Shown here: in pieces, positions 746 to 11,573 of the stretch
Layout of the letters: each line of letters starts with the position of its first letter
How positions within the stretch are numbered: the first letter of the stretch is position 1
Virus record (IMG/VR): IMGVR_UViG_3300012974_000418
Length of the DNA: 11,573 bases
Reading direction: 5' to 3' (one strand)
From: a virus
Lineage: Duplodnaviria > Heunggongvirae > Uroviricota > Caudoviricetes
The notes under the pieces: generated by a model
The model's input: the letters and a program-made list of their open reading frames with translations, nothing else
Told to the model about the DNA's origin: nothing
Databases searched by the model: none
Translations under genes and position numbers: made by a program

Positions 746-1501
746 TTATTCAGAATCAATATCTTTTAAATCATCCTGAATCGCTTGTGCGTTCGGATTT
801 TCCTGCGGTTTGAGTTCGCCGCCATTAGCGATGAAATCATGACGCTGGAAGTACGCTTCGCGCACCATAATATAAGGATCGGACGACTGACGCAGCAGAC
901 CATCGGAATCCAGCAGCTGAGCGCGGGTTTCGATCCCTTCAAGCGTCCATTTACCCACAGACATCGGCCAGGTCAGCCAGGAAAGAACCGGGTAAAGACC
1001 ATCCGCCATATCACCACCGTCATCACGCAGCGTGAAGCTACCGTAGAACGGTAACTGAACGTAAGGCCCATAACCCACGCCATAATGACCAAGCGTACTA
1101 CCGAAGCGGTGAGGTTCAGTCCGTTGCAGTTTCGGGTTCGCCATCCCTGCAACATCAATAAAGCCGCCCATCCCCAAAATGGTGTTCAGGAAAAAGCGGG
1201 TAAAGTGGACCATCCCCTGATAAGGGTCGCCCTGCAAGAAGTAGTTAACCATCACCGCAGGTTCTTCAAGGTTGCCAGTAAAGTTGCTCAAACCATTACG
1301 CGCCGGTTGCGGAACATAATCACGCCAGGCGACAGCGACCGGTCGAACAATATACGGGTCTAATACGTTGAAGTTGAAGTTGTACATGGTGCGGTTGAAC
1401 CCTTCTAACGGGTCAGAACGCCCTTGCTGATCTGTACCGGAACTCGCACACCCCACCAGAAGCGTAGTTCCCAGAGCAAGCGCCGACAGGCGAAGCTTCA
1501 T
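746..1501 (-). CDS. mlaA: MlaA/VacJ outer-membrane lipoprotein (phospholipid asymmetry maintenance)
   Basis: 251-aa ORF with signal peptide and lipobox (LLVGC); sequence reads as MlaA/VacJ family; expected position next to yfdC and argW. Confidence 0.88.
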   Translation of the reverse strand: MKLRLSALALGTTLLVGCASSGTDQQGRSDPLEGFNRTMYNFNFNVLDPYIVRPVAVAWRDYVPQPARNGLSNFTGNLEEPAVMVNYFLQGDPYQGMVHFTRFFLNTILGMGGFIDVAGMANPKLQRTEPHRFGSTLGHYGVGYGPYVQLPFYGSFTLRDDGGDMADGLYPVLSWLTWPMSVGKWTLEGIETRAQLLDSDGLLRQSSDPYIMVREAYFQRHDFIANGGELKPQENPNAQAIQDDLKDIDSE

Positions 1502-1794: not shown

Positions 1795-2727
1795 ATGGAC
1801 AACGACAAAATTGATCAACACAGCGACGAAATTGAAGTTGAGAGCGAAGAAAAAGAGCGCGGCAAAAAAATAGAAATAGATGAAGACCGACTCCCCTCCC
1901 GGGCGATGGCAATTCATGAGCATATCCGCCAGGATGGTGAAAAAGAGCTGGAACGCGACGCAATGGCGCTACTGTGGTCAGCCATTGCGGCGGGTCTGTC
2001 GATGGGCGCTTCGCTACTGGCAAAAGGGATATTTCATGTCGAACTGGAAGGAGTGCCAGGCAGCTTCTTACTGGAGAATCTCGGTTATACCTTTGGTTTT
2101 ATTATCGTCATTATGGCCCGCCAGCAATTATTTACCGAAAACACCGTGACTGCGGTACTACCCGTCATGCAAAAACCGACAATGAGCAACGTCGGCTTAC
2201 TTATGCGATTATGGGGCGTCGTGCTGCTGGGTAATATTCTCGGGACAGGTATTGCTGCATGGGCATTTGAATATATGCCTATCTTCAATGAAGAAACTCG
2301 CGATGCATTTGTCAAAATCGGCATGGATGTGATGAAGAACACCCCCAGCGAGATGTTTGCCAACGCGATCATTTCCGGCTGGCTGATCGCCACTATGGTT
2401 TGGATGTTTCCTGCTGCGGGTGCGGCAAAGATTGTGGTGATTATATTGATGACCTGGCTTATTGCACTGGGTGACACCACCCACATCGTTGTCGGTTCTG
2501 TTGAAATCCTCTATCTGGTGTTTAACGGCACGCTGCACTGGAGCGATTTCATCTGGCCCTTCGCACTACCTACTTTAGCGGGGAACATCTGCGGCGGCAC
2601 CTTTATCTTCGCGTTAATGAGTCATGCACAGATTCGTAACGACATGAGCAACAAGCGTAAAGCAGAAGCACGCCAAAAAGCAGAACGTGCGGAAAACATT
2701 AAGAAAAATGATAAAAACCCAGCATAA
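1795..2727 (+). CDS. yfdC: Inner-membrane protein of the formate/nitrite transporter (FNT) family
   Basis: 310-aa ORF with a hydrophilic acidic N-terminus followed by several hydrophobic helices; length and position immediately upstream of tRNA-Arg match yfdC. Confidence 0.85.
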   Translation: MDNDKIDQHSDEIEVESEEKERGKKIEIDEDRLPSRAMAIHEHIRQDGEKELERDAMALLWSAIAAGLSMGASLLAKGIFHVELEGVPGSFLLENLGYTFGFIIVIMARQQLFTENTVTAVLPVMQKPTMSNVGLLMRLWGVVLLGNILGTGIAAWAFEYMPIFNEETRDAFVKIGMDVMKNTPSEMFANAIISGWLIATMVWMFPAAGAAKIVVIILMTWLIALGDTTHIVVGSVEILYLVFNGTLHWSDFIWPFALPTLAGNICGGTFIFALMSHAQIRNDMSNKRKAEARQKAERAENIKKNDKNPA

Positions 2728-2802: not shown

Positions 2803-2877
2803 GTCCTCTTAGTTAAATGGATATAACGAGCCCCTCCTAAGGGCTAATTGCAGGTTCGATTCCTGCAGGGGACACCA
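2803..2877 (+). tRNA. argW: tRNA-Arg, anticodon CCU (argW-like), 75 nt with encoded CCA
   Basis: Acceptor stem GTCCTCT / AGGGGAC, anticodon loop CTCCTAA with CCT anticodon, T-arm GCAGG-TTCGATTC-CTGC, discriminator A then CCA at 2875..2877. Confidence 0.93.
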
Positions 2878-3038
2878 TCTATCAGTTCGCTCCCATCCGT
2901 ACCAGTCCGCAAAATCCCCTGAATATCAAGCTCTCCGTAGATTCACAGTTCGTCACGGTTCGCGTCAGATCGTTGACAGCCGCACTCCATGACGGGTAAA
3001 AAGTGGATAAAATAATTTTACCCACCGGATTTTTACCC
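2878..3038 (+). other. attL-proximal region between the tRNA and int, with short direct repeats (possible integrase arm-type sites) and a possible int promoter
   Basis: CAGTTCG at 2883..2889 and 2946..2952, related GGTTCG at 2957..2962; TTGACA at 2973..2978 with TAAAAA at 2997..3002 (18-nt spacer). Confidence 0.3.
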
Positions 3039-4196
3039 ATGCTCACCGTTAAGCAGATTGAAGCAGCAAAGCCGAAAGAAAAACCATACCGCCTTCTCGA
3101 TGGTAATGGCCTGTATCTTTATGTCCCTGTATCAGGGAAAAAGGTATGGCAGCTTCGCTACAAGATTGACGGTAAGGAGAAAATCCTGACCGTAGGAAAA
3201 TATCAGCTTATGACTTTGCAAGAGGCAAGGGATAAAGCATGGAATGCGAGGAAAGACATCTCGGTTGGCATCGATCCGGTAAAAGCGAAAAAGGCTTCGT
3301 CTAACAACAATTCCTTTAGTGCGATTTACAAGGAATGGTACGAGCACAAGAAGCAAGTCTGGTCAGTAGGCTATGCAACTGAACTTGCAAAAATGTTTGA
3401 TGACGACATTTTACCTATCATCGGCGGCCTTGAAATTCAGGATATTGAGCCGATGCAACTGCTGGAAGTAATCCGCAGATTTGAAGATCGCGGTGCAATG
3501 GAGCGAGCCAACAAAGCCCGCAGAAGATGCGGCGAGGTTTTCCGTTACGCTATTGTCACTGGTAGGGCTAAATATAACCCGGCACCTGACCTTGCTGACG
3601 CCATGAAGGGATACCGCAAGAAAAACTTCCCGTTTCTTCCTGCAGACCAGATCCCGGCATTCAACAAAGCACTGGCAACATTTTCAGGAAGCATCGTATC
3701 GCTCATTGCGACCAAAGTTTTACGCTACACAGCCCTAAGAACGAAAGAGCTTCGTTCCATGCAATGGAAGAACGTCGATTTTGAAAACAGGATTATCACC
3801 ATCGACGCCAGTGTGATGAAGGGACGCAAAATTCATGTTGTCCCGATGTCAGACCAGGTGGTTGAACTTCTCACTACACTAAGCTCAATCACTAAACCAG
3901 TATCAGAGTTTGTTTTTGCCGGGCGCAACGATAAGAAGAAGCCAATCTGCGAGAACGCGGTGCTACTTGTGATCAAACAAATCGGCTATGAAGGTCTGGA
4001 AAGCGGTCACGGATTCAGGCATGAATTCAGCACGATTATGAACGAGCACGAATGGCCTGCTGATGCTATTGAAGTGCAACTGGCACATGCCAACGGCGGA
4101 TCTGTGCGCGGGATTTACAACCACGCTCAGTATCTCGATAAGCGCAGAGAAATGATGCAGTGGTGGGCGGACTGGCTTGATGAAAAGGTGGAGTAA
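3039..4196 (+). CDS. intS: Phage tyrosine integrase (IntS/CPS-53-type, argW-specific family)
   Basis: The tracked ORF 3003..4196 starts at GTG; the ATG at 3039 (MLTVKQIEAAK...) gives 385 aa, the length I recall for IntS-type integrases. N-terminal arm-binding-like domain; C-terminal catalytic region with HxxR (HGFRHEF) and a tyrosine near the C-terminus (RGIYNHAQYL). Confidence 0.88.
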   Translation: MLTVKQIEAAKPKEKPYRLLDGNGLYLYVPVSGKKVWQLRYKIDGKEKILTVGKYQLMTLQEARDKAWNARKDISVGIDPVKAKKASSNNNSFSAIYKEWYEHKKQVWSVGYATELAKMFDDDILPIIGGLEIQDIEPMQLLEVIRRFEDRGAMERANKARRRCGEVFRYAIVTGRAKYNPAPDLADAMKGYRKKNFPFLPADQIPAFNKALATFSGSIVSLIATKVLRYTALRTKELRSMQWKNVDFENRIITIDASVMKGRKIHVVPMSDQVVELLTTLSSITKPVSEFVFAGRNDKKKPICENAVLLVIKQIGYEGLESGHGFRHEFSTIMNEHEWPADAIEVQLAHANGGSVRGIYNHAQYLDKRREMMQWWADWLDEKVE

Positions 4197-4250
4197 TCAA
4201 CCTTTTCATCAATTTTCACATCACCAAAGCCATTTAGAACGTGGATGATG

Positions 4251-6188
4251 TTAACCTATTGCAACTCTCGCATTACAAAATGCCAAAGCATCAGCCTCCG
4301 TATTGAACTCAACAATAAAAAAGTTTTGCAATCTAATAACGGTGTCCGTTTGTGCAGTAAGATACAATCGAATTGTTCCTGATGATTCTGCTTTTCCAAT
4401 ACCGAAAGTACTTGTCCATTTGCCGTCTTCTGTATAGATAACACCTGCTGAAACAGATTCTGAGAATCTAAAGTTTCCTGTCCCGGAAACAAGTTTAGCG
4501 TTAACCCCCCATACATACCACAGCCCACCAGTTATTGAGGCAAATTCTGAACTTAACTGTGATGACCCAGCATCGATTGATACTTCCGCACAACCATAAC
4601 CAATTGCTATTCCATCATCTACACAGTTTGCTGTTACTTGTTTCGTGCCGGGGAATGACCACGTAGTAGAACCAACAACCCCTGAATATAAATCTGCTGC
4701 ACGTACAGCGCCATGATACCCTATGGCCCCCTTGATAGCTTGCACCGTGGGCGCTCCACGCAAACTTAAGTTGCTACTCGCTAATAATCCAGATTGAGAT
4801 GCAACGCTTTTAATAATCGGGACTCCGCCAACTTCCCCCCCCGCATAAAGATTCTCAACAATAAATGAACTATTAGCGTCAACGTTCATGCTGTAAATAT
4901 TCGAACTAACAGTGTCAATTCGACAGTTACGCGCAATTAAGTTTGAGTTAATTAATTCAATATTAGTTAAGTATGACTCTTCAATGTATGCCTGTGGTGT
5001 GTTTATTAATTTAACCTGTCTCGGAACTTCTTCAGAACCATCGCGATCAATGGTAGATGCCGTAGCAATGAGTTCAAACCATACGTTTCGTATAACAATA
5101 GGGGTATAAGGAACAATGTTATTATAGTCAATCCTTATGCCACCACCAGTGCATTGCTCCATGATGCTATCTTGAATTTGCACAGATCCACCGCCATCTT
5201 GAGCATTCACTATATCAATACAGTATTTAGATATACCTTGGAAATAACAGTCGCGAAATGTATCGCAGCCAGAATGCATGCCGGGCACGCTTTCAGCACG
5301 ATACCCATACTCAGACGTTCTGAAGTTAACAGTTTGATATGTATTACCTATATTACCAGTTGGCTTTTTAATACAAACACCAAAATCAGCCATACCTACA
5401 TAACTGATATCCCATCTCCCAGAGAACATATCATTCGGGTCATATAGCACCCCCACGGAATCAGATGTTGCCGCCCCCTGTATGCTTATTTTTGAAATAC
5501 TTCGACGCTCCCAGTTTGGTACTGATTGTAATACTTTAATTGCATAATCTTCACTCCCTGGTTTTAATATAGATGAGTATCCAGAACCATCAATATCAGC
5601 ATTGCCAGTTGAAACGCTTTCGCTATATATGCCTGGAGAAACAAGAACCCGCCCCCTTGCGGTGGTATCATTAATCGCCTGTTGTAAAGTTGAATAATCA
5701 CCACTATGTTTAATGTCATTCAAATTATCAATTAGCTTTCTTTTACCAGAGCCAATATTTTTTGCACCATCTTCTGCCTGTAGAGCCGATTTACTCTGTG
5801 CATCATTAACTAAATTTAATCCTCCTGGAGAGGACAATTCTTGTCTTAACTGATCTGGATCGTACTTCAGCACATTAGGAAAATAGAACTGCTGTGCTCC
5901 ATACGCGTCATAAACAGCCATGGAATGGCCTTGCACAGTCACAAATTTAGCAATCTGTCCGTTATATACAGGATAACCAGCAGCGTTAATGATGATTGGT
6001 TGAGAAACAGGAACGTGAGAGCCGTCTTCGTTCTCCACATAAACCTGAATCTGGTTTTCAGGATTTACCGGGTCAGTGTCAATTTTACCGATATAAATTT
6101 TGCCATTGGCTACGGCTTTAAAAGAACGAGCCATAGTGAAGAGTTGCGAAGGCATCGATACAATCACATTAGCTGTAATGTCTGTCAT
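4251..6188 (-). CDS. Tailspike protein: P22 gp9-like N-terminal head-binding domain (about 5853..6188) fused to a divergent receptor-binding/depolymerase body
   Basis: The first ~110 aa ([34 protein letters not shown]...VLKYDPDQ) are near-identical to the P22 gp9 N-terminal domain as I recall it; the remaining ~530 aa do not resemble the P22 body. Confidence 0.88.
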
Positions 6189-6246
6189 TTAATTTGCTCC
6201 AGATGCAAGGAATCGCCGCAGCGTGGCTACGGTGAATTTTGGGCAT

Positions 6247-6270
6247 AAAAAAACCCAGCCGAAGCTGGGT
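6247..6270 (-). terminator. Rho-independent terminator on the minus strand between ant and the tailspike gene
   Basis: Read on the minus strand: stem CCCAGC, loop TTCG, stem GCTGGG, then TTTTTTT (plus-strand A-run 6247..6253, stem arms 6254..6259 and 6264..6269). Confidence 0.65.
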
Positions 6271-6288
6271 CGTTGCGTTGGTTATCTG

Positions 6289-7212
6289 TCAGTAGTTATG
6301 TACTGAAGGAGGCAATTCTTTATTCTTAAGTCTCATCCATGCGGAAAGATTCGTTGGTCCGTCTGGCTCATTGATATCAACATCTCGTGTGTGATTGATT
6401 AAAACGTCTCTCGCCATTCCGATAACATACGAGAATTCATGACCGTAGTCGTAGCATCTGCCGGAATAGTTCGATTGAATTTGTTTTAATGCCGGATACA
6501 GTTCGCGGAATAATGCCTGTGAACGGTTAGCATAATCCCAGAGCCATACAAGGCTGTTTGCTTCTTTTGCAGAAAGCTCGTTGGTTTTCTTCTCTTGTTT
6601 GCCGATGAACTCACCTTCAAGCGGAACTCGAGCTGCAAGTGACAGTGCTTCGGTAAACTGCTCCTCACTGATTTCTTTGTACGAACATCCAAAATGGGAT
6701 TTCAGTGACGACCACATGGTGATCATCGCCTTAGCCTGTTTTTCTTTTGGCAGAGACTGACCGCGACTCATGACGAGTTGTTTAATGGCTTCCTGCTGCT
6801 CAGTGGTGATTTTACCCGGCAATGCCTTTTTAGCTTTGCGCGGGTTAACCACATGGCCTTTAGTCCAGTACTCGTAGAGCACATCGTCACACTCTTCCTG
6901 ATACTGGATTACATTGTCGCGGATTTCAGGGCGGACTTTGTTAGGGCTGATGGTTTGCAACCAGCCATTCAGTTTACGTAAAGCAAGGCAAATCATGGTC
7001 TGCACGCCGCCAACTGAAGGTATTGCGATTTCCACAATACCTTTAGCAAATCTTTGTTTTAACTTTGTAAACTGTGAAGCCCAATCCATACCCATTCCCT
7101 CAACGATAGGTTTCATTGGGGTATACGGTTCGCCGTTGTGATTGACAACATAAAGCTCTGCGCCGTGGAATGGCACGTTGATAGTAGATACTGCTGTTGC
7201 TATACTTTTCAT
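6289..7212 (-). CDS. Phage antirepressor (Ant-like, AntA-type N-terminal domain)
   Basis: 307-aa ORF placed between the arc-like gene and the tailspike, as ant is in P22 immI. The N-terminal region has the look of AntA-type antirepressor domains. RBS GAGGA 9 nt upstream of the ATG. Confidence 0.65.
7178..7206 (+). promoter_or_regulatory. Predicted sigma70 promoter firing antisense across the ant translation-initiation region (Psar-like)
   Basis: TTGATA (7178..7183), 17-nt spacer, TATACT (7201..7206) on the plus strand, inside the first codons of ant; predicted start about 7213. Confidence 0.45.
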
Positions 7213-7283
7213 GTCAGTTTTTCCTCAAAATTTACTGGCGATTTAAGCCCGAGCTACTCGCAATAGCTTGGGCTTTACTCATT
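7213..7283 (+). ncRNA. Candidate sar-like small antisense RNA complementary to the ant ribosome-binding site
   Basis: From the predicted start (~7213) across the ant RBS complement to a hairpin (arms 7245..7255 and 7265..7275, 10 Watson-Crick pairs plus one G-U, 9-nt loop) followed by a U-containing tail; about 68..71 nt. Confidence 0.4.
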
Positions 7284-7425
7284 CTGGACAAACAATTCCA
7301 TCCTTAGCTACTGACTCCTTTAGTCTCCTCAATACCTCATTACTGAACGACCGATCATCCTTTTTAGCGGACTGCTCCAAAGCCTTTTCCAGCCATTCTG
7401 GCATCCTTAATGTCTTAACTTTCAT
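7279..7425 (-). CDS. Arc-like ribbon-helix-helix repressor, 48 aa (below the ORF-track length cutoff)
   Basis: Hand-translated: MKVKTLRMPEWLEKALEQSAKKDDRSFSNEVLRRLKESVAKDGIVCPE. AAGGAG RBS 5 nt upstream of the ATG at 7423..7425; RHH pattern (MP..L...L....RS.N.EV..RL.ES); position between mnt and ant. Confidence 0.6.
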   Translation of the reverse strand: MKVKTLRMPEWLEKALEQSAKKDDRSFSNEVLRRLKESVAKDGIVCPE

Positions 7426-7529
7426 TTTTGCTCCTTTGTATGTGGTACGCATACATAGTATTTAGGTACGCATTGATAGTCAATAGATACCTACATATCC
7501 TGTGGTAAATAATTATTCAGGATGCGCCG
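7426..7529. promoter_or_regulatory. Divergent promoter/operator region between the arc-like and mnt-like genes (Pant-like and Pmnt-like)
   Basis: Minus strand: TTGACT (revcomp of 7478..7483), 17-nt spacer, TACTAT (revcomp of 7455..7460). Plus strand: TTGATA at 7473..7478 with TATCCT at 7496..7501. Imperfect palindrome GTATG-N7-CATAC (7438..7454) centred on GTAC; direct repeat GGTACGCAT at 7444..7452 and 7465..7473. Confidence 0.5.
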
Positions 7530-7781
7530 ATGTCTGATCGTAAGTACAAAAACCCTCAAGTGAATCTGAGGCTTCCTGTAGAGATAAAGGAACGTCTTAT
7601 TGAGCTGGCTGAGGCTAATTCTCGTTCATTAAATGCTGAGATGGTCGCGGCACTTGAAGCGTGGACCGAAAAAAATAAACACATTCAAGCACTAGACCTT
7701 GCAACTATAGCATCGCGGTTGATAGAGCTTGAGCATGAGGTTGAGAAGTTAAAATGTATGCATGGCAACGGTGAAAAATGA
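7530..7781 (+). CDS. Mnt-like ribbon-helix-helix repressor (maintenance-of-lysogeny repressor of the immI module)
   Basis: 83-aa ORF, the length I recall for P22 Mnt; N-terminal RHH pattern (VNLRLPVEIKERLIELAEANSRSLNAEMVAALEAW); divergent from the arc-like/ant genes. Confidence 0.7.
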   Translation: MSDRKYKNPQVNLRLPVEIKERLIELAEANSRSLNAEMVAALEAWTEKNKHIQALDLATIASRLIELEHEVEKLKCMHGNGEK

Positions 7782-8092
7782 AACGCATCGCTATTTTGTT
7801 AATATTGTTCTTCTCTACAATAGTTTGCGCCAAACAAAAATCAGATAATGGCGATCTTAAAGGCCTGCAAGAACTCATGATAACTTCGAAATTTGCTGGC
7901 ATGTGCGGCACAATCAAACAAATGGCAACATTTCAAGAATCAACAAAAATGCCTGGCGGAGATGAGTTCTTACATCGTTTTCTGACCACAGAGCAAGCAA
8001 GACTTGGAATGAATCCACAGGAGTTTCTTGAAGCATGCCAGAAGTCAATTTCAGCTTATACCAATTATTACAATCTAACTTCTGATAAATAA
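7778..8092 (+). CDS. Small exported protein of unknown function (N-terminal signal peptide); accessory gene in the mnt operon
   Basis: 104-aa ORF whose ATG overlaps the mnt stop (ATGA); hydrophobic N-terminus MKRIAILLILFFSTIVCA; AT-rich relative to flanking genes by eye. Confidence 0.6.
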   Translation: MKRIAILLILFFSTIVCAKQKSDNGDLKGLQELMITSKFAGMCGTIKQMATFQESTKMPGGDEFLHRFLTTEQARLGMNPQEFLEACQKSISAYTNYYNLTSDK

Positions 8093-8117
8093 TAGAAAGG
8101 ATTTTATAAATAACTTT

Positions 8118-8603
8118 ATGAAAAAATCACTATTAATTATCCCGCTTCTGCTGGCTGGATGCGCAAAAGTAAGTGACTATCAAGCAAGTTGCGAACAACG
8201 CTATCCAAAGCTTAGTGATATGGCTAATTGCCTTGATGCCAGCGTGAAGAACGACTCACGCATGGCATCAGCACCAACACCTAAGCTGTATGTCCTTGCT
8301 GCGAAGATGCTCGGGCAAGGTGTCGATGAAGGCAAGATAAGTGACGCACAGGCAAGACTTGAGCTTCAGAATCTTTATGTTCAATTACAAAGCCAAGAAC
8401 AAGCCCAACAAATAGCACAAAGCCAAGCATTCCAGCAGGCTTTATTGAATTATCAGGCTGTAAACACAATGCAAGCGATCGAGCAAAAAGCGAGACAGCC
8501 TGTTATAACTCAACCTTACCCAACGCGTGTTGACACCTATACAAACTGCAATTCAGGATTTGGAAATACCGTCACATGCAACAGTAGCAGCAACATTAGA
8601 TAA
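8118..8603 (+). CDS. Predicted outer-membrane lipoprotein of unknown function with a Gln-rich predicted helical region
   Basis: 161-aa ORF; lipobox LLAG-C with Cys at position 15 and Ala at +2 (no Asp inner-membrane retention signal); Q-rich segment (QLQSQEQAQQIAQSQAFQQALLNYQA); same strand as and downstream of mnt. Confidence 0.65.
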   Translation: MKKSLLIIPLLLAGCAKVSDYQASCEQRYPKLSDMANCLDASVKNDSRMASAPTPKLYVLAAKMLGQGVDEGKISDAQARLELQNLYVQLQSQEQAQQIAQSQAFQQALLNYQAVNTMQAIEQKARQPVITQPYPTRVDTYTNCNSGFGNTVTCNSSSNIR

Positions 8604-8605
8604 AG

Positions 8606-10717
8606 CTATTCATATTCATTCATACCGCTTAACGAGGCGACAATACCAACTCTCGACAAGCGATTGAATTCATCGCTACCAATAGCATCGCGTATTGCTT
8701 TTACGGCGGCTTTATTTGCCATAAATCTGCGTTCAGCCGCCGCTAATGCACCATCACTTGCCCCAACCTTAACTGCCTTTGTTGCCTCTTGGACAGCCTT
8801 TTCAATCGCGTAACGACCACTGCGGGATGCAGCTAACTTTTCTATCGTCCCTTTAGCTATAGATCCAGAAACAGCCCCCACAACACCGCCAACAATCCCG
8901 CCACCAGTGGTACCAACAATAGCCCCTGATGTTGAATTGCCTATTGCATTGAGAACTGTCATGACAGCTTTTGGCAGCCCTTGCTCAAGAGAGTTAATAG
9001 CCGGTATAGAGCGCCCCGTATGCTCTACATATCGCAGTGGTCTGGTTGCTGCTCTGGCAAGGTCGCTGTATGCCCTAGCAATCTTACCCATTTCTGGCGA
9101 GTGCCTGCTAATGGCAGTAATGTTCTGCGGCGTAAGGATCGACGCTATATGGAATACGCCAGCAGACTCTGATTTACCGCCACGCACCCCTTGCGATACC
9201 GCATCTTGTAATATTGATGCAATTGCTGGAGATCGCTCAGACTCTGGCAGTGAGCCAATAATCTGATGAAACTTTCCTGTCCCACTTTTTGATGAATTTT
9301 GCAAGGCTTTAATACCATCAGTGACTAACTGATCAGTTGCAAGGTTTCTAAACGCTGCTTCAGCCTGTTCTTGTGCTGTAAATCTTGCTTTTGACAGATC
9401 ATTAGCTTTTTGCCAGTCATCAAGAAAACCGCCATTTTGAGCCATTATGCGCATATCTTCCGTTGCTGCATCACGAAGCTCCGCCATGCGCCTTGCCGTA
9501 TTTGCCTCACCAGACCTTATATACTTCTGCTCAGCGTCAGCAAGTTTACTTCGCCATGCCTTCATGGCATCAAACGTGATTCCTTTTTTACCAGTTTTAG
9601 CATAAGCAGATGCAAATTGTTTCATCTCAGGAGTTAGCGGCATGCCAGCCAAAATATCACCCTGAATTGTAGCGTTCAGGTTTGACATTCTGGCCTTTGC
9701 GTCAGGCATCGTGGAGCGGACGCTATCCCATGCTGCCTTTTCTGAGTTCTTCATTTTATCAATACTTGCTAAAACCCTTTGTTTTATGGCTGCACTTTTT
9801 TCTGATGCAGATCCAGCCTCAGCACCAAGTTCATCAAGTGCTGAGTGGAATTTCGACTGTATTTCACTAAACGCCCTAGTATGTGCATCCTGAACAATTC
9901 CTGGTTCGGATGCCAATATCCCTTCGGCTTGTGCAATTCCACGACTTCCAGATCGCATTCCTGGTGTTAATGCGTTTATATCAATTCCAGCAGACTCAGC
10001 CGCTTTTGCTACATCTTCGGACACATTAGCGGCCTGACTGGCAATTGACTGACGCCCAGCACCTGACTTTGCCATCCTGGAAACATCATTAGCAGAATTC
10101 AGTGCTGCACCACCAAGAGCCTGTGAAACCCTTGGCGCAATAACGCGCCCGACACCTGAAAGAACGCCTTGAGCACCAATATTGATACCACCGTTAATGG
10201 CAGCATTTTGTGCAAAATCACCCTCCTGATTTGCAGCATCAGCAAGAGAACCTGCAATCATGTTTCCTGCGGAACCGATATCTCCAGCGAGCTTTGCTGG
10301 CGCTCCAGCAGCTTTTGCCGCTGTGCCAATTGGCAGGAGATACCCACCAATTGTTTCACCGGCTTGCGCATAAGGGTCTGTCGGTCGATCGACTGGACGA
10401 TAGACATCATCCAAAACCTTGGGGCCACCAAGCCCCTGGCTGATTGCATTAATCAGACTTGCGCCACCCTGCAATACGTCAAATGGTATGTTTACCAGAC
10501 CACGGCCAGCCTGTTCTGCAATTTGCCCTGCGCTTTGACCACCAGTGAGCCAGTCAGTGGCTTTTCCTACCAGAGATTGTTCTTCTGGCTGCGATTGGTT
10601 TTGAGTGGATTGATCACCAGAAGACAGCATCTGAGCAATGCGACGTGCTCCCTCAGTATCGCCGGCAGCATCAGCATTCCTTAACGCCGTCATCAACTGT
10701 TCGCGACTATAGGCCAT
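8606..10717 (-). CDS. Internal virion/DNA-ejection protein (P22 gp16-like by position), Ala/Gly-rich
   Basis: 703-aa ORF, the last late-strand gene before the immunity module, as gene 16 is in P22. Low-complexity A/G/S-rich composition with a glycine-zipper-like segment ([22 protein letters not shown]) near the C-terminus. Its ATG overlaps the upstream gene stop (TAATG). Confidence 0.55.
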
Positions 10718-11199
10718 TACTGCCCTCCGAGATATTTATTAATCAGGTCATCATCAGAAAGCTGCTGTTGAGACGGTTGTATGTCCTTCCCGTATTTCTG
10801 TTGCATACGTTTCTGAGCCATCTCAGTGGTTTTTATGATTGTTTTGATGGCTGCTCTGGCTGATTTTTCAGACTGATTTGGGGACAAACTACCAATAGCA
10901 TCCATTACCTTTTGCCCCTCGGCATTACTTAAAGCCCCCATCCCTTTCATCTGCTGAATGCCAGATAAGAATCCCTGAGATTTCAGTGTGTCAACCAGAG
11001 TTTCTGTATCAGCAGCCTCTGTTCCTGGAATGAATCTACTCGATAGTGGGTTTAGGTTTGTTCCGAAATATCCAGTGAATCCTGGGCTATTAAGAACTTT
11101 TGTAGCCGTCTCTATCGTTCTGGAGAGATTATCCATTCCAGAGTTGTACGCATCGGCCTTATCTCGCTTTGCCTGCTCCATAGCTTGCTGATTCTGCAA
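10717..11199 (-). CDS. Virion internal (ejection) protein candidate, 160 aa with TTG start; possibly the C-terminal part of a gene interrupted by an in-frame amber codon
   Basis: ORF starts at TTG (11197..11199) with AGGA 7 nt upstream; same frame as the upstream ORF, separated from it by a TAG at 11209..11211 and three sense codons; Q/N/A-rich. Confidence 0.5.
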
Positions 11200-11208
11200 T
11201 CTCTTGTC

Positions 11209-11573
11209 CTACAATTCAGCAAGTTTTAAGGCATTAGTTTCATTTGCGATGAGTCTGTCGTATTTCTTGTCCTCTAATTCCATCCGACGAAGATTGACAT
11301 TTTGTTGCGCAATATTGTTGCTTGCCCACCCTCTGGCATTTGTCATGTCATTATTACGGATTGTTTCGTTAATTCTTTGCTGATCCTGCTGGCGGCCAAC
11401 CATCTTGTCCTGAACATTGAAGTAGTCAATCGGACCAAGAGCAGCCATTCCAAGGTGATCAACAAACTCACCAAATCCTGAAGGGTTCTGCTGATACATC
11501 TGAGCAACGCTGTTAGGGTCAACACCGACGCGAGTCAGTTCCTTGGCGTTGTTTTGCAGCCATGATTGCATTG
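11209..11573 (-). CDS. Virion internal (ejection) protein candidate (gp20/gp7-like by position); likely 5'-truncated by the window edge
   Basis: Open frame from the window edge to the TAG at 11209..11211; the ATG at 11569..11571 is only the first start inside the window and the true start may lie upstream. Confidence 0.5.
   Translation of the reverse strand, partial: MQSWLQNNAKELTRVGVDPNSVAQMYQQNPSGFGEFVDHLGMAALGPIDYFNVQDKMVGRQQDQQRINETIRNNDMTNARGWASNNIAQQNVNLRRMELEDKKYDRLIANETNALKLAEL

Follow-up and report, generated by a model that had tools for sequence, protein, structure and literature searches.

A nonsense point mutation has very probably killed the gene-20-type (gp20-type) DNA ejection gene of a P22-like prophage in the 11,573-nt stretch of DNA analyzed here (hereafter, the window). 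The change is a coding-strand C to T, that is, G to A on the + strand at position 11211. On comparison with its relatives, the locus is one gp20-type gene and not two, and the intact form is a P22 gene-20-type ejection protein of 423 aa. The kind of lesion is already known, no other sequence searched shares the allele, and no new mechanism is called for.

The interrupted gene and its prophage surroundings

The window runs from the E. coli chromosome into the right end of a P22-like (Lederbergvirus, HK620/CUS-3-type) prophage, which is integrated at the tRNA gene argW. The features of the window are given below with their coordinates, strand and the source of each assignment.

746..1501, - strand: mlaA, host gene (Pfam; RefSeq annotation of matching E. 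coli genomes)
1795..2727, + strand: yfdC, host gene (Pfam; RefSeq annotation of matching E. coli genomes)
2803..2877, + strand: tRNA-Arg(CCT), argW, the integration site (tRNA search; the only tRNA in the window)
3003..4196, + strand: IntS-type tyrosine integrase (Pfam; RefSeq annotation of matching genomes)
4251..6188, - strand: tailspike with P22 head-binding domain, intact (Pfam)
6289..7212, - strand: antirepressor Ant, intact (Pfam)
7279..7452, - strand: Arc-like repressor, intact (Pfam)
7530..7781, + strand: Mnt/Arc-like repressor, intact (Pfam)
7778..8092, + strand: unknown ORF of 104 aa, intact, without a Pfam match
8118..8603, + strand: unknown ORF of 161 aa, intact, without a Pfam match
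8606..10717, - strand: gene-16-type ejection protein of 703 aa, intact, the functional partner of gp20 (identical protein on 6 contigs)
10717..11208, - strand: 3' part of the gp20-type gene (codons 261-423 and the natural stop), open and unchanged (translation)
11197..11199, - strand: TTG, Leu-264 of the intact protein, putative re-initiation codon (window sequence)
11209..11211, - strand: amber TAG, formerly CAG (Gln-260) (window sequence against relatives)
11212..11573, - strand: 5' part of the gp20-type gene (codons 140-259 of 423) (translation, PF16928, protein identity)

Read directly, the minus-strand letters around the junction are ...GCT GAA TTG TAG GAC AAG AGA TTG CAG AAT... The sequence-only reading had described a TAG between two same-frame minus-strand ORFs, followed after three sense codons by a TTG with an AGGA before it, and each of these elements was recovered in place: the sense codons are GAC AAG AGA, the AGGA lies at 11210..11207 (-), 7 nt 5' of the TTG, and the two ORFs (11209..11571 and 10717..11199 in the ORF listing of the window) share one frame. 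Translated in that frame, 11571..10717 yields 120 codons, one stop and 164 codons to the natural stop, the last base of which overlaps the gene 16 start codon at 10717. The upstream ORF does end at the TAG as had been claimed, but the ATG listed as its start at 11571 is Met-140, internal to the protein, and the frame stays open as far as the window edge. Outside the window lie the first 139 codons of the gp20-type gene and the rest of the prophage. The same-frame ORF pair is accounted for by a point substitution inside one gene, so chance is not at issue.

The family assignment is based on both the protein profile and the gene order. The window fragment scored 67.5 bits (cut-off 29.7) against Pfam PF16928 Inj_translocase, named 'DNA/protein translocase of phage P22 injectosome', and a full-length relative scored 227.5 bits over residues 10-217. 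As in the P22-like late-operon order 14 - 7 - 20 - 16, a gene-16 homologue adjoins the gp20-type gene, with overlapping stop and start at 10717; the gene-7 side is outside the window, but every relative that shares this gp20/gp16 has gene 7. A gp16 identical to the 703-aa protein of the window occurs on 6 further contigs, where it is tagged PF26808 Phage_P22_gp16, and an intact 421-423 aa PF16928 protein precedes it wherever the contig extends far enough. A family member is expected to be one uninterrupted polypeptide of ~420-470 aa; the relatives are all uninterrupted, while the window copy has a TAG at codon 260. We thus file the locus as a putative nonsense-mutated copy (pseudogene) of the PF16928 family and not as a functional member.

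The surroundings of the stop are intact. Full-length family matches were obtained for the host genes and for the remaining prophage genes in view, and the region from gene 16 to the tailspike head has ~89% DNA identity to CUS-3 and HK620, the closest isolated phages for this arm. Window positions 11573..5848 aligned with five prophage loci (L009-L013) at 99.2-99.5% identity with 0 gaps. From 6004 to 11573, position 11211 is the only base absent from every fetched relative, and the 3' part of the gene (10717..11208) has no private substitution. Given that ~5.5 kb around it contains neither a gap nor another private base, the lesion is likely recent and isolated, and the sequence resembles neither a poor assembly nor what is left of a decayed prophage.

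Some further features of this arm were recorded. The integrase and tailspike genes are convergent and 54 bp apart (4197-4250); according to feature names, several similar argW prophages have an acyltransferase, O-antigen polymerase or glycosyltransferase gene near the integrase/tailspike, and the prophage here seems to be without a serotype-conversion module at 4197-4250. The 161-aa and 104-aa ORFs are located between gene 16 and the mnt/arc immunity region and are unchanged in L009-L013; P22 carries sieA (superinfection exclusion) in that interval. In the tailspike gene, 8 substitutions at 5907-6003 are private to the window among the six relatives aligned there, and the similarity to the same six relatives ends at ~5848, just past this cluster. 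Rather than point mutation, the cluster probably reflects the border of a different tailspike receptor-binding module.

Comparison with intact relatives

The window translation with Gln placed at the stop was used as the protein query and obtained 4,814 matches. The best 23 of them (P0001-P0023) are 423-aa proteins that agree with the query at each of its 284 residues (100% identity), window residues 140-259 and the C-terminal part each being 100% identical as well. Because these 423-aa proteins match with Gln at the stop, the stop replaces Gln-260 of a 423-aa protein. At the nucleotide level, two loci that code for a protein of this kind (L049/L050) differ from the window by 1 mismatch over 855 nt of the gp20-type gene, at 11211, and so a single base against an intact allele creates the stop. 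The changed base is T on the coding strand (A on the + strand) in the window, and C (G) in the relatives; a three-way DNA alignment of 121 nt around the site likewise has one differing column, with T in the window and C in the relatives. Among the 42 fetched loci that retain both flanking 15-mers, the codon at the site is CAG in 41 and CAT in one, and none has TAG or any other stop.

All intact relatives examined have a continuous CDS of 421-425 aa. In complete E. coli genomes a single annotated CDS extends over the site (strain 2020CK-00188, 421 aa; strain p11A, 424 aa). The intact E. coli prophage alleles closest to the window, P0001 (423 aa) and L049/L050, have CAG at codon 260 and are each annotated as one 'phage DNA ejection protein'; the P0001 protein is identical to the window translation once Gln is set at the stop, and L049/L050 have a different prophage context from the window, with a 704-aa gp16 and another flank. 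The AGGA and the TTG are also found inside the uninterrupted ORF of all relatives, and for that reason they are no evidence of a gene start.

We profiled the distribution of the TAG allele by exact matching. A 61-mer with TAG was found in 0 of 5,426 complete E. coli genomes, 30 of which contain the CAG version exactly, and an exact 33-mer scan for further TAG carriers returned 0 matches in GTDB species genomes, IMG/VR and metagenome contigs. Programmed readthrough, or a conserved split gene, was considered and rejected, with a stop in 0 of the 42 relatives and 0 exact TAG matches in the four collections.

A base that is single, private and absent from every other public sequence searched could also be a sequencing or assembly error, in which case the true genome has CAG and the coding-strand T at 11211 is a wrong consensus base. 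We consider this unlikely, given the 5.7 kb around the site that aligned without an indel and the lack of any other private base at 6004-11573. Systematic substitution errors usually occur at Dcm (CCWGG) and Dam (GATC) motifs and at homopolymers, and the site, GAATTG[T]AGGAC, is outside all of them.

Position of the stop in the protein

Distant homologues are also continuous over the junction. When 50,697 phage records were searched using tblastn, 46 matched over at least 80% of the query with the junction inside one piece and within one annotated gene, for example HK620 gene 20 and the Salmonella phages VSe13 and SE1. The Sodalis phiSG1 'gp11 | gp12' was considered as a split pair and rejected, as gp11 is a single 425-aa CDS and gp12 is the next gene, with a 4-nt overlap. 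HMMER, run exhaustively against 1.84 billion cluster representatives, identified 2,865 homologues, and among the best 150 of these, 114 match in one stretch over residue 260, 30 match the N-terminal module only, and 6 match the C-terminal module only. Four of those six matches lie within proteins of at least 387 aa, and the two short proteins (136 and 174 aa) look like fragments. With just 6 of the best 150 being C-terminal-only, and 4 of them in proteins of at least 387 aa, no family of standalone C-terminal-domain genes is apparent. In an alignment of 82 diverse full-length homologues, column 260 is never gapped and has Q in 36 and E in 18, and the run around it is conserved and indel-free (E250, N252, L254, K255, E258, L259 in 66/82, and K262 in 56/82).

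To locate the stop in the fold, we relied on the domain map published for P22 and on an AlphaFold2 model generated from the 82-sequence alignment (mean pLDDT 82.7). Residue 260 is in the interior of a predicted helix of 47 residues (253-299), seven residues in, where the pLDDT is >90. The sole internal low-confidence hinge of the model is at 213-223, in agreement with the C-terminal-module-only matches, which begin at residues 214-236. The natural module boundary is thereby predicted at ~213-236, about 40 residues N-terminal of the stop. With residue 260 inside a conserved predicted helix and the hinge/module boundary at ~213-236, the stop is predicted to cut inside the C-terminal domain and not at the linker. 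A stop at a domain linker had been considered, as the P22 PP2/PP3 boundary (255/256) is numerically near, and was rejected as a coincidence, the hinge here being at ~213-236. For the gp20-type protein, no PDB sequence match was found, and when the model was compared with the PDB by Foldseek, no match had an E value below 0.2.

The predicted position of the stop bears on another explanation, namely that the amber codon is real but silent or leaky, due to either a suppressor-tRNA host or a restart at the TTG that gives a two-piece gp20. A CAG-to-TAG change is exactly what a Gln-inserting suppressor reverses, and if the suppressor host were true, the prophage would be a wild suppressor-dependent (conditional) phage; however, argW is the sole tRNA in the window, and nothing usable was found in the literature on natural amber-suppressor E. 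coli. A restart could draw on the AGGA-N7-TTG 9 nt after the stop and on the untouched downstream frame, but the motif is equally inside every intact allele and an intact downstream frame is equally expected of a recent mutation. The P22 N-terminal gp20 amber fragment is still packaged (PMC8402733), though the break in the window would fall in a conserved C-terminal-domain helix ~40 residues past the predicted hinge, so that neither fragment would be a whole domain, and standalone C-terminal-domain genes do not form a family (6/150 C-terminal-only matches). Taken together, we find a silent or leaky amber very improbable, and favor a loss of gp20 by the nonsense mutation.

Two genuine genes, the upstream one ending at the TAG and the downstream one encoding 160 aa from the TTG, are hardly credible: the stop, AGGA and TTG are in the right order and spacing and the 160-aa or 154-aa ORF is called on 17 public contigs, but one CDS covers the site in every uninterrupted relative, and the loci with such calls that were read (L003-L008) are without TAG, cut by an IS/rearrangement or an N gap, and always CAG where the codon is retained. 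The sequence-only reading had left the choice open between two adjacent genes, the second with a TTG start behind AGGA, and a single gp20-like gene with a nonsense mutation. The former can be dropped, as no relative has a stop there and AGGA/TTG are inside every intact ORF. The latter agrees with the homologues, which are single polypeptides over the junction in E. coli prophages, HK620 and phiSG1. The alignment that had been proposed, of the concatenated translation against homologues, likewise gave one polypeptide over the junction, and a consistent two-gene arrangement was not found among them.

The 17 public contigs encode the downstream ORF as an exact protein, in either the TTG form (160 aa) or an ATG form (154 aa, ATG at 11181..11179), and six loci were read from them (L003-L008). 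In five (L003-L007) an IS element or a rearrangement interrupts gp20, and in L008, a metagenome scaffold, a run of N bases does so; no TAG was seen in the six, with CAG in all that keep the codon. Among the loci read, gene callers picked the TTG or ATG in cut or broken alleles only, and the 160/154-aa ORF calls were thus rejected as support for two genes, none of these disrupted or gapped alleles being amber. ST131-type E. coli prophages (L005 at 8740-9989, also L006 and L007) have a 1,250-bp IS3-family (IS911-like) insertion in gp20. The element has a 3-bp target duplication (ATC) and is located 21 nt downstream from the position of the amber codon in the window. This is an independent inactivation that leaves the same C-terminal ORF, by insertion and not by point mutation. 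L003 (1-96) and L004 (1-173) represent two further, different gp20 truncation points. The IS911-like insertions and these truncations indicate that gp20 was inactivated repeatedly and independently in E. coli prophages.

Proposed consequence and the P22 gene 20 ambers

Virion packaging, ejection and periplasmic-channel assembly of gp20 are known for P22 only (PMC10883804; bioRxiv 10.64898/2026.09.03.749273). P22 virions package gp7, gp20 and gp16 and release them on adsorption; K+ release and DNA injection require all three (PMC10883804). In-situ cryo-EM revealed that residues 1-47 of P22 gp20 line the extracellular channel, followed by an outer-membrane helix and the periplasmic domains PP1 and PP2, and that the C-terminal plinth (256-435) abuts the cytoplasmic membrane, where gp16 takes over (bioRxiv 10.64898/2026.09.03.749273). 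The P22 mutants amH1032 and amL100, which lack just the final 33 or 66 residues of gp20, make non-functional virions (PMC10883804). Only residues 1-213 of the window protein align with P22 gp20 by BLASTP, the C-terminal half not being sequence-similar, and the functional inference therefore relies on domain analogy and on the full-length alignment to HK620 gp20.

The proposed sequence of events starts with a coding-strand C-to-T transition that would have turned CAG (Gln-260) into TAG. In an ordinary host, translation would end after residue 259 of 423, with a loss of 163 residues (39%). The fragment would retain the N-terminal Inj_translocase region, corresponding in P22 to the extracellular segment, the outer-membrane helix and the first periplasmic domains, and would lack most of the C-terminal domain, corresponding in P22 to the plinth on the cytoplasmic membrane that works with gp16. 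By analogy with the P22 gene 20 ambers, induction would still give DNA-filled particles, perhaps with the 259-residue fragment; these would be without a complete trans-envelope channel to the cytoplasmic membrane and would be non-infectious. A Gln-inserting amber suppressor (supE type) in the producing cell should restore the exact wild-type protein, CAG having been the codon before the change. From the P22 analogy we infer both the loss of function and this particle phenotype, with induced particles likely unable to deliver their DNA unless the host has a Gln-inserting amber suppressor.

In annotation, the locus is best entered as a single gene-20-type ejection gene that contains an internal stop (pseudogene) and not as a pair of hypothetical genes. 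The prophage probably cannot make infectious particles and should be scored accordingly, though all else in view is intact. It provides a clean example of what would be the first step of prophage decay, with one point mutation in an essential virion protein of an otherwise untouched element. Beyond annotation it matters little, as this is an ordinary, textbook amber mutation in a well-studied phage gene.

The P22 gene 20 ambers (20-amN20, amH1025, amH1032 and amL100) belong to the same family and the same position in the 7-20-16 cluster. The lesion type is shared with 20-amN20, which is also a CAG-to-TAG change (PMC8402733). The truncation point is near that of amH1025 (codon 315 of 472), at 67% of the length in P22 and 61% in the window allele, and the 314-aa N-terminal fragment of amH1025 still assembles into virions (PMC8402733). 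The same phenotype would be expected for the window allele by analogy, that is, assembly, no DNA injection and suppressor rescue (PMC8402733, PMC10883804). The P22 alleles are lab-selected conditional lethals of a Salmonella phage, whereas the window allele, found in a prophage of E. coli, seems to have arisen spontaneously.

The closest isolated-phage gp20 compared was HK620 gene 20, with 39% identity over 420 aligned columns that run straight over residue 260. It is an intact CDS of 449 aa, and CUS-3 gp20 is also 449 aa according to a review table, whereas the window gene would be 423 aa and is interrupted. In its C-terminal half, the window protein is a different mosaic module from P22 gp20, the BLASTP alignment ending at 213. 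A mosaic breakpoint inside gp20 was observed at window ~11396-11413 (~codons 193-199), near the predicted hinge. Many E. coli prophages (e.g., p11A) match at ~98-99% only downstream of ~11413, with an unrelated segment upstream, and for Sf6, Gally and HF4s-type phages the match (95-99%) is confined to the part upstream of ~11396. Intragenic mosaicism of gp20 has reportedly been published already, and the breakpoint at ~11396-11413 fits with it.
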